A stretch of DNA of 14,009 bases from a virus (IMGVR_UViG_2660237951_000011:1-14009), one strand, 5' to 3'. Counted from the stretch's first letter, positions 117-14,009 are shown. Notes: generated by a model from the sequence alone, not told the origin. Numbers and translations are program-made.

Positions 117-2054
117 TCAGGCGGCTGCACCCGCCTTTTGATTTGCACATAATTCAGGAAGATTTGCTTCTACCAGCGCACGAGCGAACGGCGGCGGTAC
201 TGCGTTACCACAGCGCGCTACCTGCTTGTCTTTGGCGTAACGATTGCCGCGATAGTCCTGATCGATAACGTAGCCGTCAGGGAAGCCCTGCGCCTTATAA
301 AGCTCATGCGGTTGCAGCATGCGCATTCCGATATCGACGATCTGGTACTTAACCCCCTCGATCGTCACCAGCCATTCATCCTCGCTATCACCGCAGTAGG
401 TTTCGAGGAATGTCCGGACCTCGCCAACGTGCTGGCCACCAGCGGTAATCGTCGGCATAGGTGTATCCATGGTCTGACCGTCGCGGCAGGTTCCGCGCAG
501 CTTCACCAGGTGCGACGCAACTACCGCGTGGTGATCAACAGTAGTGACTGAGTGGGCAGGCTCATCCATACCAACACCCGGCCCCGTGTAATTCCCACCA
601 TAGTGCTTCGCCAGGAACGCGCTCACCGTTGCAAACTTATTACCACCAGCAGTGACCGTGCCGAGCGGGTTATTCAGTTGAAGAACACGCGGTTCTTGCC
701 CTGGGCGTTCGCCGTACCCCATCTGGATCAGTGTTGGAGTTACCAGCTGCGACTTACCGCCACCACCTGCAGTAATCGTCGCACTCGGTTCGTCAGCCCT
801 GTGCCCAACACTGGCTCCAAACTGGCGGGCGATGACCGGCGCAACCACGCACGCGCGGGACTGCTTGAGGATTGTATGAGCGGGTTTATCCAGCGGGCGC
901 GGCTTTGCCTGGTACTCACTGCCGCCATTGCCAGCCAGGAACGGTGTCAGGGCGGCCTCAACTACGCCAAGCGCATGCCCATTCCCGCCCGGGCGCGCCG
1001 ACGTACCAGCGGTGACAGTTGGTACCGGCTCGGTCACTGGCTGCCCGGTGGCCCCGGTGCGGAATTTAGTAAGATGCGGTACCGCCAGTGCGTAGCCATG
1101 CTTTTTAGTGATGGTCTGCAATGGCTCTAACAACGATTGCCCGCGGAAACAGTCATAACCTCCTTTCGTCGTGGTGTGGTTACACTTCACGATGAAAGGT
1201 GATGCGCTTTCGATAACAAAGCGCTGGATGCCGCGCGCGATACGTTTGAGCGTATTTTCCGCCAGCGGCTTTTTGCGGTCGAAGATGGACCGGGCCGGGA
1301 TATTCCAGTCAATGCACTCCGCCGCGGTACGCCATGGCGCCAGCTTGCCGCTTTGTACTTCCAGTGATTTTGGATCCCCATGAGTCGCTTCAGGCCAATG
1401 AATCTTGCGGCCGTCACAGCGCGTGACCATGAAGAAACGCTTTCTGATCGTCGGCGCGCCGTAGTCACATGCGCGCAGCTCCCGATAATCAACCTCATAA
1501 CCAAGCCCGGCGATCAGCTGTTGCGCCTGCTGGCCGTGCGGCTCAATGGCAAGGAATTCACAAACCTCAGCCAGCGCAGGGTGATTCGCCGCGATCCCCG
1601 TCGACAGCATGCCGACAAATGCCTCGAATGTTTCGCCAGCACGCTCAGGATCTGGGCGTAATTCTTCATCCAGCAGCGGGCCCCATGTCTTAAACTCTTC
1701 GACGTTCTCCAGCATCATGACGCGGGGACGTACTGCCAGCGCCCAGCGCAGGACAATCCACGCCAGCCCGCGAATCTCTTTCTTAACCGGCTTAGCGCCC
1801 TTCGCCTTGGAAAAGTGGCGGCAGTCAGGGCTAAACCAGGCCAGACCGACAGGTTTACCGCTGGTGGCTGCGCTTGGGTCAACGTCAAACACCGACTCGC
1901 AATAATGCAGCGTGTCAGGGTGATTCGTCTTATGCATCGCAATAGCGTTTTCGTCGTGGTTGATAGCGATATCCACGCTACGCCCGATCGCCAGTTCAAT
2001 GCCGGTACTCGCGCCGCCGCCACCAGCAAAGTTATCAACGATAATTTCACGCAT
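117..2054 (-). CDS. DNA (cytosine-5)-methyltransferase, 645 aa, with greatly expanded variable (target-recognition) region
   Basis: Start moved to internal ATG at 2054 (MREIIVDNF), which overlaps the upstream gene's stop. C5-MTase motifs read in order: I FAGGGGASTG; IV SPDCRHFSKAKG (P-C catalytic Cys); VI MMLENVEEF; VIII ACDYGAPTIRKRFFMV; IX MLQPHELYKAQGFPDGY; X GNAVPPPFARAL. About 370 aa lie between motifs VIII and IX. Confidence 0.85.
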   Translation of the reverse strand: MREIIVDNFAGGGGASTGIELAIGRSVDIAINHDENAIAMHKTNHPDTLHYCESVFDVDPSAATSGKPVGLAWFSPDCRHFSKAKGAKPVKKEIRGLAWIVLRWALAVRPRVMMLENVEEFKTWGPLLDEELRPDPERAGETFEAFVGMLSTGIAANHPALAEVCEFLAIEPHGQQAQQLIAGLGYEVDYRELRACDYGAPTIRKRFFMVTRCDGRKIHWPEATHGDPKSLEVQSGKLAPWRTAAECIDWNIPARSIFDRKKPLAENTLKRIARGIQRFVIESASPFIVKCNHTTTKGGYDCFRGQSLLEPLQTITKKHGYALAVPHLTKFRTGATGQPVTEPVPTVTAGTSARPGGNGHALGVVEAALTPFLAGNGGSEYQAKPRPLDKPAHTILKQSRACVVAPVIARQFGASVGHRADEPSATITAGGGGKSQLVTPTLIQMGYGERPGQEPRVLQLNNPLGTVTAGGNKFATVSAFLAKHYGGNYTGPGVGMDEPAHSVTTVDHHAVVASHLVKLRGTCRDGQTMDTPMPTITAGGQHVGEVRTFLETYCGDSEDEWLVTIEGVKYQIVDIGMRMLQPHELYKAQGFPDGYVIDQDYRGNRYAKDKQVARCGNAVPPPFARALVEANLPELCANQKAGAAA

Positions 2055-3381
2055 TGACGGCCCCCTGCATGCTGTTGAAGAGACCACCAGCGGTCGTGAT
2101 AATTTCACTCGTCGGCATACGTTCGAGCCACAGCTGGTTGATATTGGCTTTCAGCTTGTTCTGCTGCGAAACAGGTAGAGCGTCAGCCCCTTCAATCTGG
2201 TTAAACACCAGTCCAACCTCAAGAGGCCAAACGCGCGATTCGTTTAACGCCTTGTCCTTTGATTCCTGCGTCTCACGGACATGGGCGCGGATCCCCCGAA
2301 TATTTGACCATTTGGCTTTATCCAGGCTTTCCATGGTCGCGATGAATTCACTGTGGTTAATGCCGTATTCTTTCGCAGACTCAACGGCAACCGTGCGTAA
2401 CCGCTCTGACATGTCTTGTTTCACGTCATCGCTATCAAAGGGCAATGTTTCCAGCCATGCATTAACACCCACCAGGATGCTCTCGCTGATCAGCTTTTTC
2501 GCTCTGTCGATCGTCAGCGGTGAAACATTGGTAAATTCAGGGTTTTCCAGAGAGTCGGCAGCCCAGGTATGACCAAACTTTGACTCGCTGAAGGTGTACT
2601 CGTCTTTCTTGCCGAACGCCGCGACAACACAGGCCCAAGCCTCTACACCGCTGGTTTCCAGAATGGCTTTTTGGGTTAATGGCAGTTCTGCCTCTGATTT
2701 CTCCGGCACTACCTCAGCGTCCAGCTCCGGCGCCGCATCAGTTTGCGTTCTTCCCACGGCAAATTGGGCCAGCGACATCGCAGCACGGCCTTTGGCCTCC
2801 AGGTCGGTGCGGTTGATGTAACTGAAACGCTCACCCCGCCATGTTTTGTCGAAGACCACGATAGCGCCAGCAAAAAATGCGCTGGTGGGCTGCTGCTTTT
2901 CGTCTTTCGGCACGAACCATGTAGGAAGATCGAAACCAATTCGGCCACGGATGAATGTGACGTGATCTGCCTCTACCGGCCACCACGTTTCACTCGTCGC
3001 AGACTTAATGAGAAAAACGTACCGACCACCCTTTTCTCGCATGGCCATAGCGTGGTTAATGATGTGGGTCATTCCGGTAACGGCCTGCTTGTCGTGGTAC
3101 TGAGAGCGGCTGTAAGGCGGGTTGCCAAACCCGGCACCACCGAGTTCTGCCAGCCGCTCTGACCAATCCTGCATCAGGGCATTATCTTCAGCCGTGTACC
3201 ATGCTGGGCACTTCGCGTTGCTGTCGTCGGCAAAAAGGTCCAACACCAGAGGGCCGAACATCGCATTGATCCCCCAAAACAACAGATCCGGAGTGCGCCA
3301 TTGATCACCGACCTCTTTCAACTCGTGTGCTGGTTTTGAACGGAGTTCAGCTAGTGCACGGCAGTATTTATTTTCCATCAT
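2047..3381 (-). CDS. Phage Dam-family N6-adenine DNA methyltransferase with ~250-aa C-terminal extension of unknown function
   Basis: N-terminal region DQWRTPDLLFW...LDLFADDSNAKCPAWYT...GFGNPPYSRS carries the NPPY amino-methyltransferase motif in a phage-Dam-like context. Start ATG overlaps the upstream stop (ATGA at 3378-3381). Residues ~200-444 show no motif I recognise. Confidence 0.8.
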   Translation of the reverse strand: MMENKYCRALAELRSKPAHELKEVGDQWRTPDLLFWGINAMFGPLVLDLFADDSNAKCPAWYTAEDNALMQDWSERLAELGGAGFGNPPYSRSQYHDKQAVTGMTHIINHAMAMREKGGRYVFLIKSATSETWWPVEADHVTFIRGRIGFDLPTWFVPKDEKQQPTSAFFAGAIVVFDKTWRGERFSYINRTDLEAKGRAAMSLAQFAVGRTQTDAAPELDAEVVPEKSEAELPLTQKAILETSGVEAWACVVAAFGKKDEYTFSESKFGHTWAADSLENPEFTNVSPLTIDRAKKLISESILVGVNAWLETLPFDSDDVKQDMSERLRTVAVESAKEYGINHSEFIATMESLDKAKWSNIRGIRAHVRETQESKDKALNESRVWPLEVGLVFNQIEGADALPVSQQNKLKANINQLWLERMPTSEIITTAGGLFNSMQGAVNA

Positions 3382-5459: not shown

Positions 5460-6086
5460 ATGGAAACGGTTGGTCAGCGCATTAAAGCCCTACGTAGGGT
5501 TACAAGAACCTCTCAAAAAGAACTGGGTAAGTTCTGCGGGGTTAGTGACGTAGCGGTGGGTTATTGGGAAAAGGATGTGAATATCCCAAACGGTGAATCG
5601 CTGGTTAAGCTGGCGAAATTCTTTAACACATCAATAGATTACATTCTTTACGGCACTGAATTTGAAGGCACCCTCATAACTAAAATGAGGCGTGTCCCGG
5701 TGATTTCATGGGTTCAAGCTGGGCAGTTCACGGAATGTAAAGCCGCTGATTTGTTCAGTGATGTCGATAAATGGGTTGAAACATCACTTCGCATTGGGGA
5801 TAACTCGTTCGCTTTAGAGGTCAAAGGGGATTCAATGACCAATCCAAATGGCCTCCCAACAATCCCTGAAGGGGCAACCGTTATTGTTGATCCAGATGCC
5901 GAACCCCTTCATGGCAAGATTGTGGTTGCGCGTCTTGATGGCACTAATGAAGCGACTGTTAAAAAACTTGTCATTGATGGCCCACAAAAATTTTTAGTGC
6001 CACTAAATCCTCGCTACCCCAACATCCCGATCAATGGTAACTGCCTCATTATTGGCGTTGTTAAAGGCGTTCAGTACGAACTCTAA
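5460..6086 (+). CDS. cI: CI-type prophage repressor, N-terminal HTH plus C-terminal S24 (LexA-like) autocleaving peptidase domain
   Basis: N-terminal HTH (TSQKELGKFCGVSDVAVGYWE). Ala-Gly cleavage site in VQAGQF. Ser nucleophile in GDSM and the Lys of the dyad in ATVKKL. Divergent from cro across an operator region. Confidence 0.9.
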   Translation: METVGQRIKALRRVTRTSQKELGKFCGVSDVAVGYWEKDVNIPNGESLVKLAKFFNTSIDYILYGTEFEGTLITKMRRVPVISWVQAGQFTECKAADLFSDVDKWVETSLRIGDNSFALEVKGDSMTNPNGLPTIPEGATVIVDPDAEPLHGKIVVARLDGTNEATVKKLVIDGPQKFLVPLNPRYPNIPINGNCLIIGVVKGVQYEL

Positions 6087-6104
6087 TCCCTTCCCACTCT
6101 TCCT

Positions 6105-6169
6105 CTAAGCATCAAGCTAAGTTTAGTTTGATGTTTTCACTTGACCAGAAAACTAAGTTAAGTTAGATT
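6105..6169 (+). promoter_or_regulatory. OL/pL-like promoter and operators downstream of cI
   Basis: TTGACC (6141-6146), 17-bp spacer, TAGATT (6164-6169). The spacer and -10 overlap the near-palindrome ACTAAGTTAAGTTAGAT. Further CTAAG boxes at 6105-6109 and 6117-6130 belong to the same half-site family as the OR boxes. Confidence 0.5.
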
Positions 6170-6528
6170 TTTTTCTGTCGGCACCAAACCACCGCGCCTG
6201 ATGTGGTTAAAAGCAGGCCAAAGCAATAAGACGTGTTCCCTGTTCTGGCTGCTCACTTTCCCCTTGAGGGTGACAGCCAGCTTTTTAAGGGCACAACAGG
6301 CGAGAGCATTGCTGATTATCGGACTGCGTGAGACGCGACGCGGTAAAGCAGGTAAACAGTGCTCTCACCGTTGTGGTAATGCGGCTCTGCGCACGTGACG
6401 AGGCCAACAAGTTTTTATTTCAACTTTTGAAATGAATACGTTTCTTGTGGTGTAGCGTCGCCGGTTCTGGCCGGTCCGGCAGGTGGAGGCACCACCGCCA
6501 CAACAACATCATTGCTGTGTGTAGTCTT

Positions 6529-6557
6529 TGCCCATCACATCGGTGGGCACCTTTTTT
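6529..6557 (+). terminator. Intrinsic terminator-like hairpin inside the leader upstream of the first accessory gene
   Basis: 8-bp stem TGCCCATC / GGTGGGCA (one G:U pair), 5-nt loop, then CC and TTTTTT (6552-6557). Confidence 0.45.
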
Positions 6558-6713
6558 ACACAAGAGACAAGGGCATCACCGGGCGACGGGCTCATTCCCC
6601 AATCCACCCGGGCAAGAGGATAGCGATTGCAGTCGCCGACAAATGCAGGTGCCCTTCTCTGTTGTGTATGGAGAAAGTTCGGCGGTGGCAGCCGCCATAA
6701 CGAGGGTAAAACC

Positions 6714-7085
6714 ATGAGTAATGACCGCATGACCGTAGTGCCCGACTTTTTGGGCGAGCTGGATGCCGGTGTGTTCATGAACAAAATCGCGGCAGCACTT
6801 AACACCACCGCGCTTGGCGTTCTGAACAACGGCAACAAAGGCAAAGTAGTCCTCACCTTTGATTTTGAGCGTATGGGTAATTCCGTTGAAGAGAAGCGCG
6901 TCAAGATCAAGCACAAGCTGAACTACAGCACCCCAACTCCGCGCGGTAAAGCCTCCGAAGAGGACACAACCGAAACCCCTATGTGGGTTAACAAAGGCGG
7001 GAAGCTAACCATCCTCCAGGAGGATCAGGGGCAACTGTTCGGGATCACCGGCGCGGTGGACGGAAAGCTTAAAGCGGCTCAGTGA
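6714..7085 (+). CDS. Hypothetical protein (123 aa), first gene of the accessory operon; YfdP-like by position
   Basis: ATG at 6714 with GAGGG 7 nt upstream. The ORF-track start at 6627 has no RBS. Typical codon usage. YfdP assignment is by gene order only, not sequence recall. Confidence 0.6.
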   Translation: MSNDRMTVVPDFLGELDAGVFMNKIAAALNTTALGVLNNGNKGKVVLTFDFERMGNSVEEKRVKIKHKLNYSTPTPRGKASEEDTTETPMWVNKGGKLTILQEDQGQLFGITGAVDGKLKAAQ

Positions 7086-7141: not shown

Positions 7142-7969
7142 ATGTCTCAGTTAGACAGCGGCACCTTCAAGCAGGTCAAAGACCTGGTCCTTTCCGGTTA
7201 TCACCTGAATGATATTCATGGCCTGGCTTGCCCGACCGCATTACTGCCAGAGGGTACTGGCGTTGAAAGCCTTGAGCGCTTTTCTCTGGAACGTTTCCGC
7301 TTTCGTGGCGCAATGACCACAACCAGTATTGACGACTTCGCACGTTATTCTAAAGGTTATGCCAGCGCCAGCGAGCCAGCTCGTTGCTTCATTGACGCTG
7401 ACAACATGACCGCCCGTTCAGTGTTCAACATCGGCACCCTGGATAACCCCGGTCACGCCGATAACGTTGCTTCAATCACTCTGAAGAAAACCGCCCCGTT
7501 TCGCGCGCTACTACAGATCGATGGTCAGCGTCTGAAACAAAAGCAAATCGCTGAATGGCTGGAAGACTGGAGTGATTACCTGCTGGCGTTTGACGCTGAT
7601 GGTAAGACGATGGAGATTTCTCAGGCGGCTCAGGCCGTGCGTCGTATCACTATCCAACAAGCAACCCAGCAGGATCATGAAACTGGTGATTTCGCTGGTA
7701 AAAAATCACTCATGCAAAGCGTCGAAGCAAGCAGCAAAGACGTAATGCCGGTAGCGTTCGAATTCAAATGTGTGCCGTATGAAGGTCTGGGCGAACGCCG
7801 CTTTAGCTTGCGTAACAGCCTGCTGACCAGCGATGAACCCTGCTTTGTTCTGCGCATCGTCCAACTTGAAGCCCAGGAAGAAGCAATCGCCAACGAATTC
7901 CGCGATTTACTGATCAGCAAGTTCGACGGTGAATCAGTGGAAACTTTCATCGGTAACTTTAAAGCCTAA
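7142..7969 (+). CDS. Hypothetical protein (275 aa); YfdQ/DUF2303-like by position
   Basis: AGGA 7 nt upstream of ATG. No recognisable catalytic motif. Lies immediately upstream of the YfdR-like gene, as in the yfdP-yfdQ-yfdR order I recall for the CPS-53/KplE1 prophage of E. coli K-12. Confidence 0.6.
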   Translation: MSQLDSGTFKQVKDLVLSGYHLNDIHGLACPTALLPEGTGVESLERFSLERFRFRGAMTTTSIDDFARYSKGYASASEPARCFIDADNMTARSVFNIGTLDNPGHADNVASITLKKTAPFRALLQIDGQRLKQKQIAEWLEDWSDYLLAFDADGKTMEISQAAQAVRRITIQQATQQDHETGDFAGKKSLMQSVEASSKDVMPVAFEFKCVPYEGLGERRFSLRNSLLTSDEPCFVLRIVQLEAQEEAIANEFRDLLISKFDGESVETFIGNFKA

Positions 7970-8008: not shown

Positions 8009-8097
8009 GAAGCGTAATTCCATTAATTATCGCCATCCGGCGAGGGATTCGTGCAACCAAAATCTGCGCGGTGCAGCGCGCCAATATGGAGAAAACC

Positions 8098-8637
8098 ATG
8101 AGCTACATTCAGACATTATCCGGCAAACACTTTAATTACCTCGATATCCAACAGGACGATATCGTCATCGAGGATATTGCTACTGCGCTGTCTCATATCT
8201 GCCGTTTTGCTGGGCATCTTCCTGAGTTTTACAGCGTCGGCCAGCATAGCGTTTTAACCAGCCATCTCGTTCCGCAGGAGTTTGCCTTAGAAGCACTGCT
8301 TCATGATGCCGCCGAAGCCTACCTGCAAGATATTCCCTCACCGCTTAAGCGCCTGTTACCGGATTACCAGGTGATCGAAGCTCGCGTAGACGCTGCTATT
8401 CGCCAGAAATTTGGCCTACCGACGGAGCAACACCCAACAGTGAAATATGCCGATCTGGTGATGCTCGCCAGCGAACGCCGCGATTTTGAGATTGACGAAG
8501 GTTCCGTGTGGCCATGCCTCGATGGCGTTGTCCCGACGGACCTATTCATCATCAATCCAGTTCGTCCAGGCCAGTCATACGGCATGTTCATAAATCGCTT
8601 TAATGAGTTGATGGAGCAGCGTCAATGCGCCGCATGA
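8098..8637 (+). CDS. yfdR: HD-domain phosphohydrolase, YfdR-like 5'-deoxynucleotidase
   Basis: HD motif visible: H-x(n)-HD in LSHICRFAGH...YSVGQHSVLTS...EALLHDAAEAYLQDIP. Strong end-to-end resemblance to my recollection of E. coli YfdR. Start at 8098 (GGAG 6 nt upstream), not the track start at 8071. Confidence 0.7.
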   Translation: MSYIQTLSGKHFNYLDIQQDDIVIEDIATALSHICRFAGHLPEFYSVGQHSVLTSHLVPQEFALEALLHDAAEAYLQDIPSPLKRLLPDYQVIEARVDAAIRQKFGLPTEQHPTVKYADLVMLASERRDFEIDEGSVWPCLDGVVPTDLFIINPVRPGQSYGMFINRFNELMEQRQCAA

Positions 8638-8801
8638 AGGTAAAAGAACTCGTGGCGGAGGCGTTTGCCTCCGTGGCTGAATTGCCACCAAAGCATGCAT
8701 CGCTTATGCGCGAAGTCGCTACCAGGCTTGAAGCTACGTTCGCAGCATTAACCGAATCATTGGCGCAACTGGAACAGGAACGTAAAGGTAAAACGCAATG
8801 A
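8634..8801 (+). CDS. Hypothetical small protein (55 aa), below ORF-track cutoff
   Basis: ATG overlaps the yfdR-like stop (ATGA at 8634-8637) and its own stop overlaps the next start (ATGA at 8798-8801). Translation MKVKELVAEAFASVAELPPKHASLMREVATRLEATFAALTESLAQLEQERKGKTQ is helical-looking. Confidence 0.45.
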   Translation: MKVKELVAEAFASVAELPPKHASLMREVATRLEATFAALTESLAQLEQERKGKTQ

Positions 8802-9052
8802 CCGTATTTGAATATCTCCAGGGCCACCCGAACGCCACCAGCGGTGAAATCGCAAGGGCGATGGGTAAAAAGACGCCAGCCGTAGCCAGCGCACTATCTC
8901 AGCTTTATGCAACAGGGAGAATTGTTAAGTCTGGCGCACGCGGTGGGATACCGACATACCGCGTCAATGATCTGCCGTTTGGATGCAGCAATAACTTAAC
9001 GCTGATATTTAACCAGCTTCTGCGAAACGTCCGCAAAGGAGCAGCCCAATGA
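8798..9052 (+). CDS. Hypothetical small protein, possible winged-helix DNA-binding fold (84 aa)
   Basis: Translationally coupled on both sides. The stretch SGEIARAMGKKTPAVASALSQLYATGRIV looks HTH-like. Confidence 0.55.
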   Translation: MTVFEYLQGHPNATSGEIARAMGKKTPAVASALSQLYATGRIVKSGARGGIPTYRVNDLPFGCSNNLTLIFNQLLRNVRKGAAQ

Positions 9053-9366
9053 GCAAATTTACGGCATTACCAGTAGAACGCGACCAATACGGCTACTGGA
9101 CTCACCCCGTCTATGAGCAATTTTGCGATGGTCGTGAATTTATCTCACCTGATGAGTTCAACGCCTGGCTGGATAAAAACGGCCTCGAATGGACGGTAGT
9201 TTACCGGGATGAAGAAGACATCGATCCTGAAGTTGATGGTTACGATATTTCAGCCTGGCAGCCAGAATCGCCAGCCGGTGAAGGTTGGTTTGTCGGTTCA
9301 ATTCACAACACCGAAGATGGCGCGGTATGCATCTGGTTACGTAACGTTGAAGGCGGTGCAGCATGA
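9049..9366 (+). CDS. Hypothetical protein (105 aa)
   Basis: ATGA overlaps at both ends. Acidic, Trp-rich. No family recognised. Confidence 0.6.
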   Translation: MSKFTALPVERDQYGYWTHPVYEQFCDGREFISPDEFNAWLDKNGLEWTVVYRDEEDIDPEVDGYDISAWQPESPAGEGWFVGSIHNTEDGAVCIWLRNVEGGAA

Positions 9367-10121
9367 CAGTCCATACACTGAAGCAATGCCGCCCGGACCA
9401 AGAAGAAACCGAGTATTTCTGGAAGTTGTTTCATGCGGCACAACGGAATGACGCTCGCTGGCACGGTAGTGAAATCAGCATTATCGCCGATGAACTATCC
9501 CGGACGGATTTAGATCGTAATCAAAAACTGTTTCTTCTCCGTGCCTGGCAAGTGCTGGTAGACGACAAAGGTGGATTCGGGCGCTTGATGGGTGCCTTTG
9601 ATACTTACGTCTACAACATGCAGGACCCTGATGATGACTGCGTAGCCTGGAAGCCTGAACTGGCTAAGCTGCTACAGGATGGCAATCTGTTTGATGTTGT
9701 GCTGACGGCATATCAGGAGGCCTGCCATGAGGGGATCGTTAATTGGGAGGCAGCGGTATCTCTTTCTGAGGAAAACGTAGAACTGAAGCGCAAACTCTAC
9801 GCAGCAGAGAATCAAATAGCAGAACTGGAGGCGCGGACGTTCAATCCTGCAATTCTAGATGTGATAGCAGAGCGCCAGCGGCAGAAAGCCGTTGAGGGCT
9901 GGACGTCTGAGCATGACGACAAATACGGAAAATCGCAGTTGTTGTGGGCATCCTCATGCTACGTCCTGAACACCATCCAGCCGTTTAACCGCATTCCGAT
10001 GGACTGGCCGTGGGCACCCGAATGGTGGAAGCCGACAGGCCCGCGCCGTGACCTGGTGAAAGCTGGCGCGCTTATTCTGGCTGAAATTGAACGCATAGAC
10101 CGCCAGGAGGCAGCACAATGA
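9363..10121 (+). CDS. Hypothetical protein with central coiled-coil (252 aa); possibly Ea22-related
   Basis: ATGA coupling at both ends. Coiled-coil segment EENVELKRKLYAAENQIAELEAR. Trp-rich C-terminus. Confidence 0.6.
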   Translation: MTVHTLKQCRPDQEETEYFWKLFHAAQRNDARWHGSEISIIADELSRTDLDRNQKLFLLRAWQVLVDDKGGFGRLMGAFDTYVYNMQDPDDDCVAWKPELAKLLQDGNLFDVVLTAYQEACHEGIVNWEAAVSLSEENVELKRKLYAAENQIAELEARTFNPAILDVIAERQRQKAVEGWTSEHDDKYGKSQLLWASSCYVLNTIQPFNRIPMDWPWAPEWWKPTGPRRDLVKAGALILAEIERIDRQEAAQ

Positions 10122-10771
10122 GCAACATCAACAAACAGGCGCTGCGTGAAACGGCGGATGCAGCAAACAAAGCCTCGTGGGGCCGTTGGGAATCATATCA
10201 TCCACACAAAGGCGCGCGGGGCCACGAGGTCAAGGTAGGGGTAAAAGCAATCGCCCAGCACTGCCTCAAGGTTGATGCAGAATTCATCGCCGCATCCAAC
10301 CCCGCCACTGTGCTGGCGCTGCTGGATGAGCTGGAAACTAAAGACAAGCGTAATGCGGAGCTGGAAGACCTTCTTGAAGCTGAAATTAAGTCATGGATGC
10401 AACGGTACGATAGTGCAAATAACCGAAGAGAAGCCGCAGAGAAGCGCAACGCAAAATTACAAAGCGAGAATGCATACATCCGCAACCGGTTCAAAGAACT
10501 GGACCTATTAATCGGGAAAAACATTCTGGTCATGCAGGCTGCGATTATCGAATGGCAGGCAACTGGCGACGCTAAGAGCGGACTGGCATGGATTTATAAC
10601 ACACTGTTTGGCCCAGGCGAATTGCCGGACGAATCTGAGAAAGATGCTCAGGCCTACTTTGACCGCAAATATGCACCGATTGACGAAGAGCTTATGGCGC
10701 TTCACAAGTGGTTTTGGGAACAAAGTGAAGCCGAACGTGCCGCCGCTGGCATTGGCGTGAAGGGGGAGTGA
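10118..10771 (+). CDS. Ead/Ea22-like protein (217 aa)
   Basis: N-terminus MSNINKQALRE... and the ATVLALLDELE segment match my recollection of lambda Ea22 (MSEINSQALRE..., ...VLELLDERE). Central coiled-coil. AGGAGG RBS. Assignment from memory, not a search. Confidence 0.6.
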   Translation: MSNINKQALRETADAANKASWGRWESYHPHKGARGHEVKVGVKAIAQHCLKVDAEFIAASNPATVLALLDELETKDKRNAELEDLLEAEIKSWMQRYDSANNRREAAEKRNAKLQSENAYIRNRFKELDLLIGKNILVMQAAIIEWQATGDAKSGLAWIYNTLFGPGELPDESEKDAQAYFDRKYAPIDEELMALHKWFWEQSEAERAAAGIGVKGE

Positions 10772-10772
10772 G

Positions 10773-11045
10773 ATGAAAAAATACCTCAGTAATTTAGCGA
10801 GCATGTTGCAGGGTATTGCAGGTGTAATTTCAGACGGCGAACGAGTGCAAACTGAGTGTCCTCCGCATTTAAAATCTGCGCTACTTGAGGCGTCTCATGC
10901 GCTGGATGGTCAATCAGTCAGGGTTAATTACCCACCAAATGGGAAACCGGAAATCGTAAATGCTCGCGGCAAGCATCGGCAGTTAACTTTCCGGGAACGG
11001 ATTGCTATTCGCCTTCTCGGCGGCAGAACGGAGATTAGGCCATGA
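10773..11045 (+). CDS. Hypothetical protein (90 aa)
   Basis: GGGGGAG RBS 4 nt upstream. Stop overlaps the next start (ATGA at 11042-11045). Confidence 0.55.
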   Translation: MKKYLSNLASMLQGIAGVISDGERVQTECPPHLKSALLEASHALDGQSVRVNYPPNGKPEIVNARGKHRQLTFRERIAIRLLGGRTEIRP

Positions 11046-11578
11046 CAACTAACCACCCGGCGCACGGTCCTGTATCAATAGATCGCCTGCACCAGATACG
11101 CGAAGTACTCAGCAAAGCAGCAGCACAAAGCGACGGCGGTAATCTCGGCTACGCAATGGCTGATGCTGTCAAGGTGATTGATAAGGCTATTGCTGCGTTT
11201 AATGCGGAGCTTTATGTTCCTACCGTTCAGTGCTGGTCATGCAGAGAGGTTATTGAAGTTTCCGCAGTAGGTGACTGTGATGGTTATTGCCCGAAATGCG
11301 ACTCGCCAATTGATCTCGATGAAGAGCCATACGATGCCGCCATACTTCAGGCTGGCAACTCTCCGGTGATTCCGGATGGTTGGAAACTGGTACCGATTGT
11401 GCCGACGGAGAAGATGGTTATCGAAGGCTTCGAGTCGGAGCCAGACGAATTCTTCAGTAAATCTGAAGTGTGGGAGGCGTATCAGAAAATGAGTGGCTGC
11501 GAACAAGCGGCGCATCGGGCCAAGTTATGCTGGGCAGCGATGATCTCAGCAGCACCACAACAGGAGGTGAAGCTGTGA
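11042..11578 (+). CDS. Hypothetical zinc-ribbon protein (178 aa)
   Basis: Two CxxC pairs, CWSCREV...CPKCDSP, spaced like a zinc ribbon. Translationally coupled on both sides. Confidence 0.6.
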   Translation: MTTNHPAHGPVSIDRLHQIREVLSKAAAQSDGGNLGYAMADAVKVIDKAIAAFNAELYVPTVQCWSCREVIEVSAVGDCDGYCPKCDSPIDLDEEPYDAAILQAGNSPVIPDGWKLVPIVPTEKMVIEGFESEPDEFFSKSEVWEAYQKMSGCEQAAHRAKLCWAAMISAAPQQEVKL

Positions 11579-11814
11579 CTAAATCAGAATTCCTCCAGAA
11601 GGTAGCGGTGCTGGCCGGTGAATGCCATAAGTTGGCCTGTGAGCTGGACATAGGCGATGAACGAATAGAGATGTTCGAGATTTATGAAGTGCTTCGCCGA
11701 ATCCAGCGGAGTGGTGCAGCCGGTGAAATGCTGGCTGCAACAAACCCTTTACTATCCCCTGGAATACCTGAGGACACTGAATGGGTAAATTTCCATAAAG
11801 AGGATCATGCCTGA
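11575..11814 (+). CDS. Hypothetical protein (79 aa), GTG start
   Basis: GTG at 11575 overlaps the upstream stop (GTGA) and is preceded by AGGAGG at 7-nt spacing. The ORF-track start at 11470 lies inside the upstream gene and has no RBS. Confidence 0.5.
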   Translation: MTKSEFLQKVAVLAGECHKLACELDIGDERIEMFEIYEVLRRIQRSGAAGEMLAATNPLLSPGIPEDTEWVNFHKEDHA

Positions 11815-11990
11815 TGCCTAAGACAATCATCATAACCTTAGAAATTGATGTTCCGGAACACGCTACCGATAGCGACATATCAGATTGGGTAGACGTCGAG
11901 TACGGGCAGTGTGGTGGACAAAAATTAGATAACCCCTGCCGTGGCGATGCCACCGAAGTAATAAACCATTCATGGAAATTTGAGAGCTAA
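11814..11990 (+). CDS. Hypothetical small protein (58 aa), below ORF-track cutoff
   Basis: ATG overlaps the upstream stop (TGATG). Translation MPKTIIITLEIDVPEHATDSDISDWVDVEYGQCGGQKLDNPCRGDATEVINHSWKFES. Fills an otherwise unexplained 180-bp gap in a tightly packed operon. Confidence 0.45.
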   Translation: MPKTIIITLEIDVPEHATDSDISDWVDVEYGQCGGQKLDNPCRGDATEVINHSWKFES

Positions 11991-11992
11991 AG

Positions 11993-12565
11993 ATGAACGA
12001 CTTAATGATTGACCTCGAATCAATGGGGAAAAAGCCAAACGCGCCGATCGTCTCAGTTGGTGCTGTCTTTTTTAACCCTCAAACAGGTGAACTTGGCCAA
12101 GAATTCTATACAGCCGTCTCGCTTGAAAGCTCAATGGATCAAGGCGCGGTACCGGATGGAGATACGATTCTTTGGTGGCTAAAACAAAGCCCTGAAGCGC
12201 GCTCAGCTATCTGCGTTGATGATGCGATGCCTATCACTGATGCACTGTCGGAACTTAGCCATTTCATTCACCGGCATGCATATAATCTCAAATACATGAA
12301 GGTCTGGGGTAACGGGGCCACCTTTGACAATGTGATTTTGCGCGGAGCTTACGAACGCGCCGGACGCATTTGCCCGTGGGAATTTTGGAACGATCATGAT
12401 GTACGAACGATTGTTACCCTCGGTCGCAGTGTTGGTTTCGATCCGAAGCGTGACATGCCTTTCATTGGCGATGTTCACAACGCCCTGGCTGATGCGCGCC
12501 ATCAGGCAAAATATGTGTCAGCAATTTGGCAGAAAATTATCCCTGCCACCAGCACCAACGAGTAA
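11993..12565 (+). CDS. DnaQ-like (DEDDh) 3'-5' exonuclease
   Basis: N-terminal MIDLESMG (Asp-x-Glu) and C-terminal HNALADARH (His/Asp) match the acidic-residue pattern of DEDDh exonucleases. Lies directly before xis-int. Confidence 0.7.
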   Translation: MNDLMIDLESMGKKPNAPIVSVGAVFFNPQTGELGQEFYTAVSLESSMDQGAVPDGDTILWWLKQSPEARSAICVDDAMPITDALSELSHFIHRHAYNLKYMKVWGNGATFDNVILRGAYERAGRICPWEFWNDHDVRTIVTLGRSVGFDPKRDMPFIGDVHNALADARHQAKYVSAIWQKIIPATSTNE

Positions 12566-12609: not shown

Positions 12610-12819
12610 ATGGCAAAGCTAATGAAAGCGAGTCTCTGGAGTAAACGCGAATTTACCAAAGACTCCATTCCTGACAACCGTACAATAAAACGTTGGGTCG
12701 AAAACGGATTACTCATGGGAAGGATTGTAGATGGTTCAGTTTTTGTCTATGAAACCGAAAAGTGGGGAGTTGACTCAATTGTTAATCAGGCGGTACGTCA
12801 GTTAATAATTGAGGGTTGA
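12610..12819 (+). CDS. xis: Excisionase-like recombination directionality factor (69 aa)
   Basis: Start moved to ATG at 12610 (GGAGAAGGAAA RBS). Pattern W-x(n)-P-x(n)-RWVENGLL...G...V.E parallels lambda Xis. Stop lies 2 nt before the integrase ATG. Confidence 0.6.
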   Translation: MAKLMKASLWSKREFTKDSIPDNRTIKRWVENGLLMGRIVDGSVFVYETEKWGVDSIVNQAVRQLIIEG

Positions 12820-12821
12820 CC

Positions 12822-14009
12822 ATGGCAGCAAGGCCACGAAAAAAAGAATACCGCCACCTTCCTGATTATCTTTTTTTTGATAAAGATCGTGGCGTGTATA
12901 AGTTCACGCTTATAACTGGGAAAAAGAAAACTCTAGGTTCGGATCGAGTAATGGCTATCGCCATCGCCCGAGAATATAACCTGAGGATGCGCCCTGAAAA
13001 TACACCATCGATAGATTCATTAATTCGGGAATCGGGAGGGCTGAATGGTGAAGCCCACCCGTTTTCTGAACATGTTGATCGCATTATGGAGAGAGCTATC
13101 AAAGATGAGCAACCGTCTAAAAGCACACTTGACGATTGGAATAATGATGCCATCAGGGTTAAAGAATTTTTTAATAACATACCCGCATGCGACATTGAGC
13201 TTGAGCACGTAAATGCCTACATACGAAATTACCATTCTGAATCGTCGGCCAATGTTCAGAACCGAAAAGTTAGCTTCCTGAAAAAGCTATTCTCTTATGC
13301 TGTTGATGAATCGCTAATGATGGATAACCCTGCAACACGGAAAAAAATGCGGCGTGTCGATAAAAAGGTCCGCCGGCGACTTACTTTGGAGCAGTTCCTG
13401 GCCATACATGCAGCTGCTGAACCCTGGCTGAAGACAGCAATGGACCTTGCATTACAAACTACTCAAGCACGCCTGGAAGTATCCCGGATCCGGTACTCGA
13501 TCAAGGAACCTCAAGAAGGAGTTTGCGGCTGTGTATGGTTCGATCAGGAAGAGGCTGGCATATTCGGAACGCTTTACATTCATCGGCAAAAAGTGCAACA
13601 CAAAGAGGCCTCTCACGTTGCAATTCCGATCGGCAGGGCCCTGAAAGAGATCATCGACAATAGCAGAGACAATGTGGCCAGTCCTTATGTTGTTCACCGG
13701 CTTTTGGAAAAGAGAAGCAATCCGATAAGCAAGGAAGTTAACCACCCAACACAGGTGGCCCCTGATTATTTGAGCAGAGCATTTTCAGAGCTGCGGGACC
13801 GGATAGGTATAGCGGCAGAATTACCTATCAAAGAAAGGCCAACTTTCCACGAGATTAGAGCGCTGGCGGCTCATATTTTCGAAAGACAAGGTATCGATCC
13901 GCAGGCAAGGATGGCCCATAGTGATGCAAAATCGACAAAAATTTATACCCAGAACCATGTTGAATGGGTAGAAGTTCCTCATGCTGAAATTGTCTTTAAA
14001 GCCGGGTGA
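12822..14009 (+). CDS. int: Lambda-family tyrosine integrase
   Basis: Alignable by eye to lambda Int: N-terminal arm-binding region (RKKEYRHLPDYLFFDKDRGVYKF vs lambda RRDLPPNLYIRNNGYYCY), and catalytic-region R...H-x-x-R...Y (HEIRALAAH, KIYTQNH). ATG at 12822 with GAGGG RBS; the track uses TTG at 12816. Stop is the last codon of the window. Confidence 0.9.
   Translation: MAARPRKKEYRHLPDYLFFDKDRGVYKFTLITGKKKTLGSDRVMAIAIAREYNLRMRPENTPSIDSLIRESGGLNGEAHPFSEHVDRIMERAIKDEQPSKSTLDDWNNDAIRVKEFFNNIPACDIELEHVNAYIRNYHSESSANVQNRKVSFLKKLFSYAVDESLMMDNPATRKKMRRVDKKVRRRLTLEQFLAIHAAAEPWLKTAMDLALQTTQARLEVSRIRYSIKEPQEGVCGCVWFDQEEAGIFGTLYIHRQKVQHKEASHVAIPIGRALKEIIDNSRDNVASPYVVHRLLEKRSNPISKEVNHPTQVAPDYLSRAFSELRDRIGIAAELPIKERPTFHEIRALAAHIFERQGIDPQARMAHSDAKSTKIYTQNHVEWVEVPHAEIVFKAG

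Follow-up and report, generated by a model that had tools for sequence, protein, structure and literature searches.

Beside xis-int, in the early segment read from pL, lambda and the Stx phages carry an exo-xis region packed with small, non-essential, and mostly uncharacterized genes, one of which encodes an Ead/Ea22-family protein with a variable C-terminal domain and a K/RGE tail; the 'ea' genes of P22 are a similar case. The exo-xis genes of lambda and Stx phages alter lysogenization and induction and shift the lysis-lysogeny balance (PMC3824215, PMC7093339). A second relevant system is the CPS-53 prophage of Escherichia coli K-12, with the order yfdP-yfdQ-yfdR-yfdS-yfdT-(ypdJ)-torI, from which multicopy yfdQRS or yfdQRT inhibits replication initiation and whose YfdR binds DnaA (PMC4776307). 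Enterobacteriophages also carry accessory regions in which variable genes are bracketed by conserved ones (Silas et al., bioRxiv 10.1101/2023.04.06.535777). Here we analyze a 14,009-nucleotide (nt) stretch of viral DNA (IMGVR_UViG_2660237951_000011:1-14009; the whole stretch is called the window below) and, within it, a block of nine open reading frames (ORFs) at 8625-11990 that lies between a yfdR-like gene and an exonuclease gene. We consider it likely that this block is the accessory, non-core segment of a CPS-53/ST64B-type early-left operon, roughly equivalent in position to lambda exo-xis, and that its proteins are dispensable modulators.

The window covers the early region of a lambdoid prophage of E. 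coli, of CPS-53/ST64B type. Its + strand carries, in order, a cI-like repressor, YfdP, YfdQ, YfdR, the nine ORFs, a DEDD exonuclease, xis, and int, and the block is 99.9% identical to that of a prophage integrated beside yejO/narP in E. coli strain MSB1_9D. The block sits as exo-xis does, in a repressor-proximal leftward early operon, upstream of xis-int and co-oriented with it, and it includes an Ea22 homologue with the variable C-terminal domain and K/RGE tail of that family. Homologues of a further block protein, o105, occupy genuine exo-xis positions in RecET-type prophages. The flanks differ from those of lambda, being YfdPQR and a DEDD 3'-5' exonuclease here and gam-bet-exo there. With CPS-53 the locus shares YfdP, YfdQ, and YfdR (59%, 57%, and 63% identical, respectively), a small gene that overlaps the 3' end of yfdR, and a cargo slot preceding the excisionase gene. 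The cargo differs, YfdS and YfdT of CPS-53 not being significantly similar to any block protein, and the exonuclease has been lost from CPS-53. The block and its two anchors, with lengths in amino acids (aa), are as follows.

8098-8637, + strand: YfdR-like HD-domain protein, 179 aa, forming the slot's conserved left anchor, 63% identical to K-12 CPS-53 YfdR.
8625-8801, + strand: o58a, 58 aa, a basic helical, YfdR-linked partner (phrog_12248, 1.9e-30).
8798-9052, + strand: o84, 84 aa, a basic winged-helix (MarR-like) DNA-binding protein (phrog_1687 MarR, 3.7e-24).
9049-9366, + strand: o105, 105 aa, very acidic and Trp-rich (pI 4.05, net charge -16, 6 Trp).
9363-10121, + strand: o252, 252 aa, modular, with an N-domain (about aa 1-125), a helical linker, and an exchangeable C-domain (about aa 140-252).
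10118-10771, + strand: Ead/Ea22-like protein, 217 aa (Pfam PF13935, 1.6e-20, aa 2-117, 74.5 bits against a cutoff of 27).
10773-11045, + strand: o90, 90 aa, basic, the most constrained gene of the block (phrog_14964, 1e-57).
11042-11578, + strand: o178, 178 aa, three-part, with an N-domain, a CxxC...CxxC zinc ribbon (about aa 64-87), and a C-domain (about aa 103-177).
11575-11814, + strand: o79, 79 aa, acidic, with a GTG start that is the same in the NCBI Prokaryotic Genome Annotation Pipeline (PGAP) (phrog_4220, 2.8e-29).
11814-11990, + strand: o58b, 58 aa, acidic, with a conserved ...DNPC motif (phrog_8773, 8.4e-24).
11993-12565, + strand: DEDD-type 3'-5' exonuclease, 190 aa, likewise conserved as the right anchor (Pfam Rv2179c-like, 6.9e-72; phrog_255 exonuclease, 1.1e-88).

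The geometry of the chain is that of standard translational coupling in phage and bacterial operons, identical at eight of the ten junctions and with nothing different. The overlap is ATGA at 8634, 8798, 9049, 9363, 10118, and 11042, GTGA at 11575, and TGATG at 11814; a previous reading of this DNA from its sequence alone (the sequence-only reading) had listed these eight positions, and all are present. The remaining two junctions nearly abut (TGA-g-ATG at 10771/10773 and TAA-ag-ATG at 11990/11993, with spacers of 1 nt and 2 nt). At nine of the ten starts, a Shine-Dalgarno (SD) site of the GGAG/AGGA/AAGG type lies 5-10 nt upstream, within the preceding gene, so the junctions show the stop/start overlap or few-nt spacer with an SD inside the upstream ORF by which coupled operons are recognized. 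As a chance control we shuffled 8071-12565 200 times and counted cases in which an ORF end is followed by the start of an ORF of at least 50 aa within -14 to +12 nt; the shuffles gave a mean of 0.47 such junctions and a maximum of 3, compared with 10 observed. Geometry, SD sites, and shuffles together bear out the proposal of the sequence-only reading that this is a chain of coupled small ORFs in an early-left operon. Translation would pass from gene to gene through the stop/start overlaps, with the SD of each gene placed inside the last codons of the previous one, and it is from this arrangement that we infer reinitiation at the junctions.

Judged by substitution patterns against homologues from IMG/VR contigs, all nine ORFs are genuine genes, because they are under purifying selection in relatives. 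The ratio of nonsynonymous to synonymous substitution rates (dN/dS) is 0.09-0.29 for o58a (52 distinct homologous sequences), 0.06-0.12 for o84, 0.29-0.38 for o252, 0.12-0.41 for the Ea22-like protein, about 0.05 for o90 (40 distinct sequences), and 0.39-0.55 for o178. For the other three we compared the proportions of nonsynonymous (pN) and synonymous (pS) differences, which are 0.29 and 0.77 for o105, 0.17-0.32 and about 0.8 for o79, and 0.07-0.26 and 0.8-0.95 for o58b, the last confirming that the 58-aa ORF at 11814-11990 is real. That some of the short ORFs might be chance frames or over-predictions is suggested by their length (58-90 aa) and their want of a Pfam family, yet every ORF keeps an intact frame with dN/dS well under 1 across many divergent homologues, each has its own specific PHROG family of unknown function, and the shuffles fail to reproduce the chain; we find the idea hardly credible.

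The sequence-only reading had placed a 55-aa ORF at 8634 as a gene missed by a 60-aa cutoff. The gene itself stands, but its start is most likely the ATG at 8625, which yields 58 aa and a 13-nt overlap with yfdR: the GGAG found 9 nt ahead of 8625 is conserved, relatives have GTA or GTG at the position equivalent to 8634 while keeping the ATG equivalent to 8625 as a TAATG overlap with yfdR, and PGAP and the annotation of phage LLS use 8625 as well. Both 58-aa proteins were missed by the cutoff and by nothing else, as NCBI already annotates them (WP_001515611 and WP_001515616). Nor are the other genes unannotated: RefSeq lists all nine as hypothetical proteins in the 99.9% identical prophage. 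We found no literature on the RefSeq accessions of these proteins.

The block occupies a variable slot in a conserved backbone, YfdP-YfdQ-YfdR-o58a ... o58b-exonuclease-xis-int, which also matches cultured phages including LLS, Eeyore, and ST64B. Our sample comprised 84 loci with a YfdR relative (four of them from an earlier retrieval), plus o58b and o90 loci. The spacing from YfdR to the exonuclease ranges from 112 to 4920 nt, and 52 distinct slots hold 256 ORFs in 87 protein clusters, with 1-10 genes each (median 5). The slot contains two genes in LLS and four in Eeyore, and in these plaque-forming phages a homologue of o58a is the only one of the nine genes in common; this gene content suggests that the block is dispensable, and it is variable among related phages. 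The whole gene combination occurs in just 1 of 5426 complete E. coli genomes.

Exchange within the slot follows both genes and domains. Of the points at which homology ends, 59% lie no more than 30 nt from a gene boundary, compared with 16% expected, and other breakpoints fall at inter-domain positions in the linkers of o252 (9661), the Ea22-like protein (10359-10430), and o178 (11182-11210 and 11336-11355), a pattern by which the units exchanged are domains and not genes alone. Three layers can be told apart. On the left, YfdR is accompanied by o58a and usually by the winged-helix o84; in the middle is a mosaic of o105, o252, the Ea22-like protein, o90, and o178, reshuffled at gene junctions and inter-domain linkers; and on the right, o79 and o58b travel with the 3'-5' exonuclease. 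Because o58a adjoins YfdR in 82 of 84 loci and o58b immediately precedes the exonuclease in 17 of 20, the two look like backbone accessories and not shuffled effectors. The sequence-only reading had described the block as a cassette of small effectors, which agrees with its hypervariability (87 clusters in 52 slots) but does not extend to o58a and o58b, which are not free cargo. Separating the shuffled cargo (o105, o252, the Ea22-like protein, o90, and o178) from the fixed partners of YfdR and the exonuclease narrows which proteins to test for which role.

The coupled junctions also offer a simple explanation for the K/RGE tail of Ea22, which has been described as of unknown significance (PMC7093339). 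An SD site embedded in the end of a gene would constrain the codons there, fixing recurring C-terminal tails such as ...KGE, ...TEIRP, and ...AAQ. The AGIGVKGE tail of the Ea22-like protein (10748-10775) is encoded by GCTGGCATTGGCGTGAAGGGGGAGTGA. All 18 KGE-ending ORFs in the slots (10 clusters) finish with AAR-GGR-GAR-TGA, the Gly codon always being GGG or GGA, and are followed by a start codon 1-5 nt later, for which this stretch supplies a strong SD site. The usual gene directly downstream of Ea22-type genes is o90, whose homologues begin 1-2 nt after a ...KGE-ending gene in 21 of 40 distinct contexts. The o90 family in turn has an invariant C terminus, TEIRP, even at about 50% overall identity; its codons, ACGGAGATTAGGCCATGA (11025-11045), include the SD of the following gene, GGAG, together with the ATGA at which the two genes overlap, and these junction constraints apparently fix the tail. 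The simplest reading of the K/RGE tail, going by these codons, would be that it provides the ribosome-binding site for the coupled gene that follows, frequently one of the o90 family, and with the longer AGIGVKGE stretch it may serve as a joint for module exchange. In lambda, ea22 (at about 2130-2160 on the minus strand of locus L184 in our set) ends with AAAGGAGAGTGAGATC, has ATC where relatives have ATG, and is followed by about 190 nt without a gene; this end may be the relic of a lost coupled downstream gene. This consequence of coupling for the Ea22 tail appears not to have been pointed out previously.

The Ea22-like protein has an Ead_Ea22 N-domain, a helical middle, and a distinct C-domain ending in AGIGVKGE, and its N-terminal part is 29% identical to lambda Ea22 over 134 aa (blastp). 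Residues from about 70 to 135 look heptad-like by eye. The C-domain is exchangeable (breakpoints 10359-10430) with a terminal VKGE, as in other members of the family, and its DNA is 94-95% identical to that of Ea22-like genes of Stx phages. The preceding o252 is built along similar lines: among its 2611 homologues the N-domain is retained and the C-domains differ, many ending in AGIGVKGE. Its own C-domain matches about nine PHROGs of unknown function, with a homology breakpoint at about 9661. No Ead_Ea22 domain was detected in o252, and the common ground consists of phrog_1138 and a relative named Ead/Ea22-like. In o178, the N-domain belongs to phrog_6144 and the C-domain, which recurs in many phage early proteins, matches phrog_12449, phrog_5913, and phrog_60.

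Two matches raise the question of whether these genes are morons, that is, prophage defense or superinfection-exclusion genes protecting the lysogen. Residues 104-204 of the Ea22-like protein (10427-10729) match, at 1.8e-36, PADLOC profile PDLC02890, which is labeled DpdH and has 127 positions and a provenance that could not be checked, and o84 has a weak match (2.8e-06) to a Ren-like exclusion PHROG, the sole 'host takeover' PHROG hit in the block. However, the genes are coupled and run in one direction within an early operon under repressor control, no separate promoter for them was detected, and the PADLOC scan, which covered the block proteins and YfdR, gave no match for YfdR or the other eight block proteins and found no other Dpd component. 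We therefore regard a moron role as very improbable. As a side observation, the DpdH-labeled profile is possibly mislabeled prophage sequence.

The 84-aa protein, o84, had been noted as helix-turn-helix-like, an assignment upheld by its MarR-type PHROG; Pfam MarR_2 and HTH_24 matches fall below threshold. It occurs in 26 of the 52 distinct slots, after o58a. The description of o105 as acidic and Trp-rich likewise holds. The only two His and two Cys of this protein (H19, C26, H86, and C94) do not vary among 35 diverse members of the family, nor do several of its Trp residues, which suggests a possible C2H2 metal site. The family consists of well-conserved prophage proteins of about 105 aa across Enterobacterales, with homologues that in Salmonella are flanked by RecE/RecT and xis-int and in Pantoea belong to chains that include DUF1317 (the family of lambda orf60a). 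A structure prediction for o105 (predicted local distance difference test score, pLDDT, of 65) returned no informative fold match, and the AlphaFold2 model of o90 (pLDDT 81.5) returned generic helical matches and no informative fold. When the o105 family was compared by profile with K-12 YfdS, nothing aligned but a 9-residue GEGW motif, at 3.9% probability, and the match was rejected. Both o105 and o90 are strongly constrained and widespread, lack an assigned fold or function, and are reasonable candidates for an expression screen.

On the right, o79 often precedes o58b, which lies 2 nt upstream of the exonuclease gene. The linkage of o58b and the exonuclease in 17 of 20 loci, maintained even where exonuclease identity is about 70%, suggests that the two form a functional pair. 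Homologues of o58b fall into just 21 representative clusters among 1.8 billion proteins, and no natural o58b-exonuclease fusion was present among the 21 representatives. The best PDB sequence match for any of the proteins, that of o79 to the Smaug SAM domain (E 0.013), was treated as chance. Multi-repeat matches of o58b to P0300 (2532 aa, a surface protein with Ig-like repeats, in 21 stretches) and P0319 (608 aa, chitin-binding) are probably chance inflated by repeats, and the similarity probably rests on a beta-strand/DxD pattern.

Related slots carry a TraR/DksA zinc finger (Pfam, 7.8e-12), DNA methyltransferases, a dATP/dGTP pyrophosphohydrolase, and a PAPS-reductase/ParB pair, and because relatives have such genes there, the slot plainly accepts host-directed and DNA-modifying cargo. 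In Eeyore, the slot gene at 5867-6619 is annotated 'queuine tRNA-ribosyltransferase', an annotation left unconfirmed by Pfam (no match at E<=0.01), while the DksA/TraR zinc-finger annotation of its neighbor is confirmed (7.8e-12).

The nature of this cargo makes reasonable the proposal that the block contains anti-defense or host-manipulating proteins. In its direct form, at least one of the nine would inhibit a host immune system, the acidic o105 by mimicking DNA or acting as an inhibitor, and others of the small proteins by binding restriction, RecBCD, or abortive-infection components. Variable genes between conserved ones are the defining signature of counter-defense-rich accessory regions (bioRxiv 10.1101/2023.04.06.535777), and the slot fits; o105 is small, very acidic (pI 4.05, net -16), and strongly conserved; relatives' slots hold the DNA methyltransferases, the PAPS-reductase/ParB pair, and the gene annotated as a queuine tRNA-ribosyltransferase; and by position the genes are expressed early. 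On the other hand, no block protein resembles Ral, Gam, or any annotated takeover or anti-defense PHROG, no structural match to known DNA mimics or inhibitors was obtained (the o105 model being weak), the characterized relatives (Ea22 and YfdQRST) affect lysogeny or replication and not immunity, and the phage already has two large DNA methyltransferases in its early-right operon. The locus also differs from the regions of Silas et al. in having no recognizable counter-defense function and in that o58a and o58b are conserved with the flanks. The sequence-only reading thus remains plausible here for its context and finds no family with a known anti-defense or takeover function behind it; direct inhibition of host immunity by one of the nine is, in our view, unlikely. 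Its comparison with kil, gam, ral, and cIII products does not hold, as blastp gave no significant similarity to Kil, Gam, Ral, CIII, or Ea10/Ssb for any of the nine.

A bolder proposal is that at least one family represents a new functional class, with o105 a metal-stabilized acidic protein that inhibits a host nuclease or defense system, for example by mimicking DNA or serving as a protein decoy, or o58b a dedicated regulatory or inhibitory subunit of the exonuclease; we hold this to be a speculation with distinctly poor prospects. By analogy with exo-xis, we favor the block proteins as dispensable modulators, most likely of host physiology or of the lysis-lysogeny decision, acting early after infection or induction, and any biochemical function named here for one of them is one that we infer.

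Several observations weigh against this accessory, exo-xis-like reading. Seven of the nine proteins have no function recognizable by sequence or fold. The searches behind this count were Pfam, NCBIfam, and PADLOC scans of the nine, which returned Ead_Ea22, sub-threshold MarR/winged-helix hits, and the one 'DpdH' match, and PDB sequence searches (ten single-protein or profile queries), which returned nothing significant for block proteins. Homologues of ea8.5, orf60a, orf61, and orf63 are absent (blastp with a 23-protein reference set gave no match better than E of about 3), and DUF1317 and DUF1382 have no Pfam match in the nine proteins. The analogy with lambda is imperfect, since the exonuclease here lies on the xis side, downstream of the block, and is unrelated to lambda Exo. 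Coupling is also supported by the 308 junctions of the 52 related slots, with their -4 overlaps (44%), -1 overlaps (9%), and 0-10 nt spacers (26%), but these shares are upper bounds, the start codon nearest the upstream stop having been chosen. Finally, the candidate early-left promoter is a consensus match, and a GC-rich terminator-like hairpin with a T-run lies between it and the genes (6529-6549, + strand).

That promoter and the remaining elements of the operon are listed here.

5460-6086, + strand: cI-like repressor gene (ORF list and PGAP).
6141-6169, + strand: promoter-like site TTGACC-17-TAGATT, a candidate early-left promoter from a consensus scan.
6714-7085, + strand: YfdP-like gene.
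7142-7969, + strand: YfdQ gene.
12610-12819, + strand: excisionase gene, near the operon end (PGAP of the 99.9% identical prophage and ORF list).
12822-14009, + strand: tyrosine integrase gene, at the operon end (same sources).

The promoter-like site stands just downstream of the cI-like gene, a position that matches that of lambda pL relative to cI, and no strong or convincing + strand terminator was found inside the chain. The nine proteins are probably read from one polycistronic early-left transcript. Taken alone, the block adds little, its genes being already annotated and its kind of region well known; leads of use are the linkage of o58b to the exonuclease and of o58a to YfdR, the conserved acidic His2Cys2 protein o105, the highly constrained o90, and the explanation of the K/RGE tail.

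Further observations concern the surroundings of the block. The YfdR-like gene is named 'phage protein' by PGAP and deoxyribonucleoside 5'-monophosphate phosphatase in phage records. No RNA family was found in the window (Rfam). Two large DNA methyltransferase genes, for a cytosine-5 enzyme (663 aa by ORF call) and an N6-adenine enzyme (444 aa), overlap end to end at 117-3381 on the minus strand, in the early-right operon, and are the phage's recognizable anti-restriction-type functions, outside the nine-gene block. About 630 nt (6087-6713) separate the repressor gene from the first early-left gene, and no N-like antiterminator gene was recognized there; the MSB1_9D prophage has a different immunity region at this place, with a ClpX-type zinc-finger gene.

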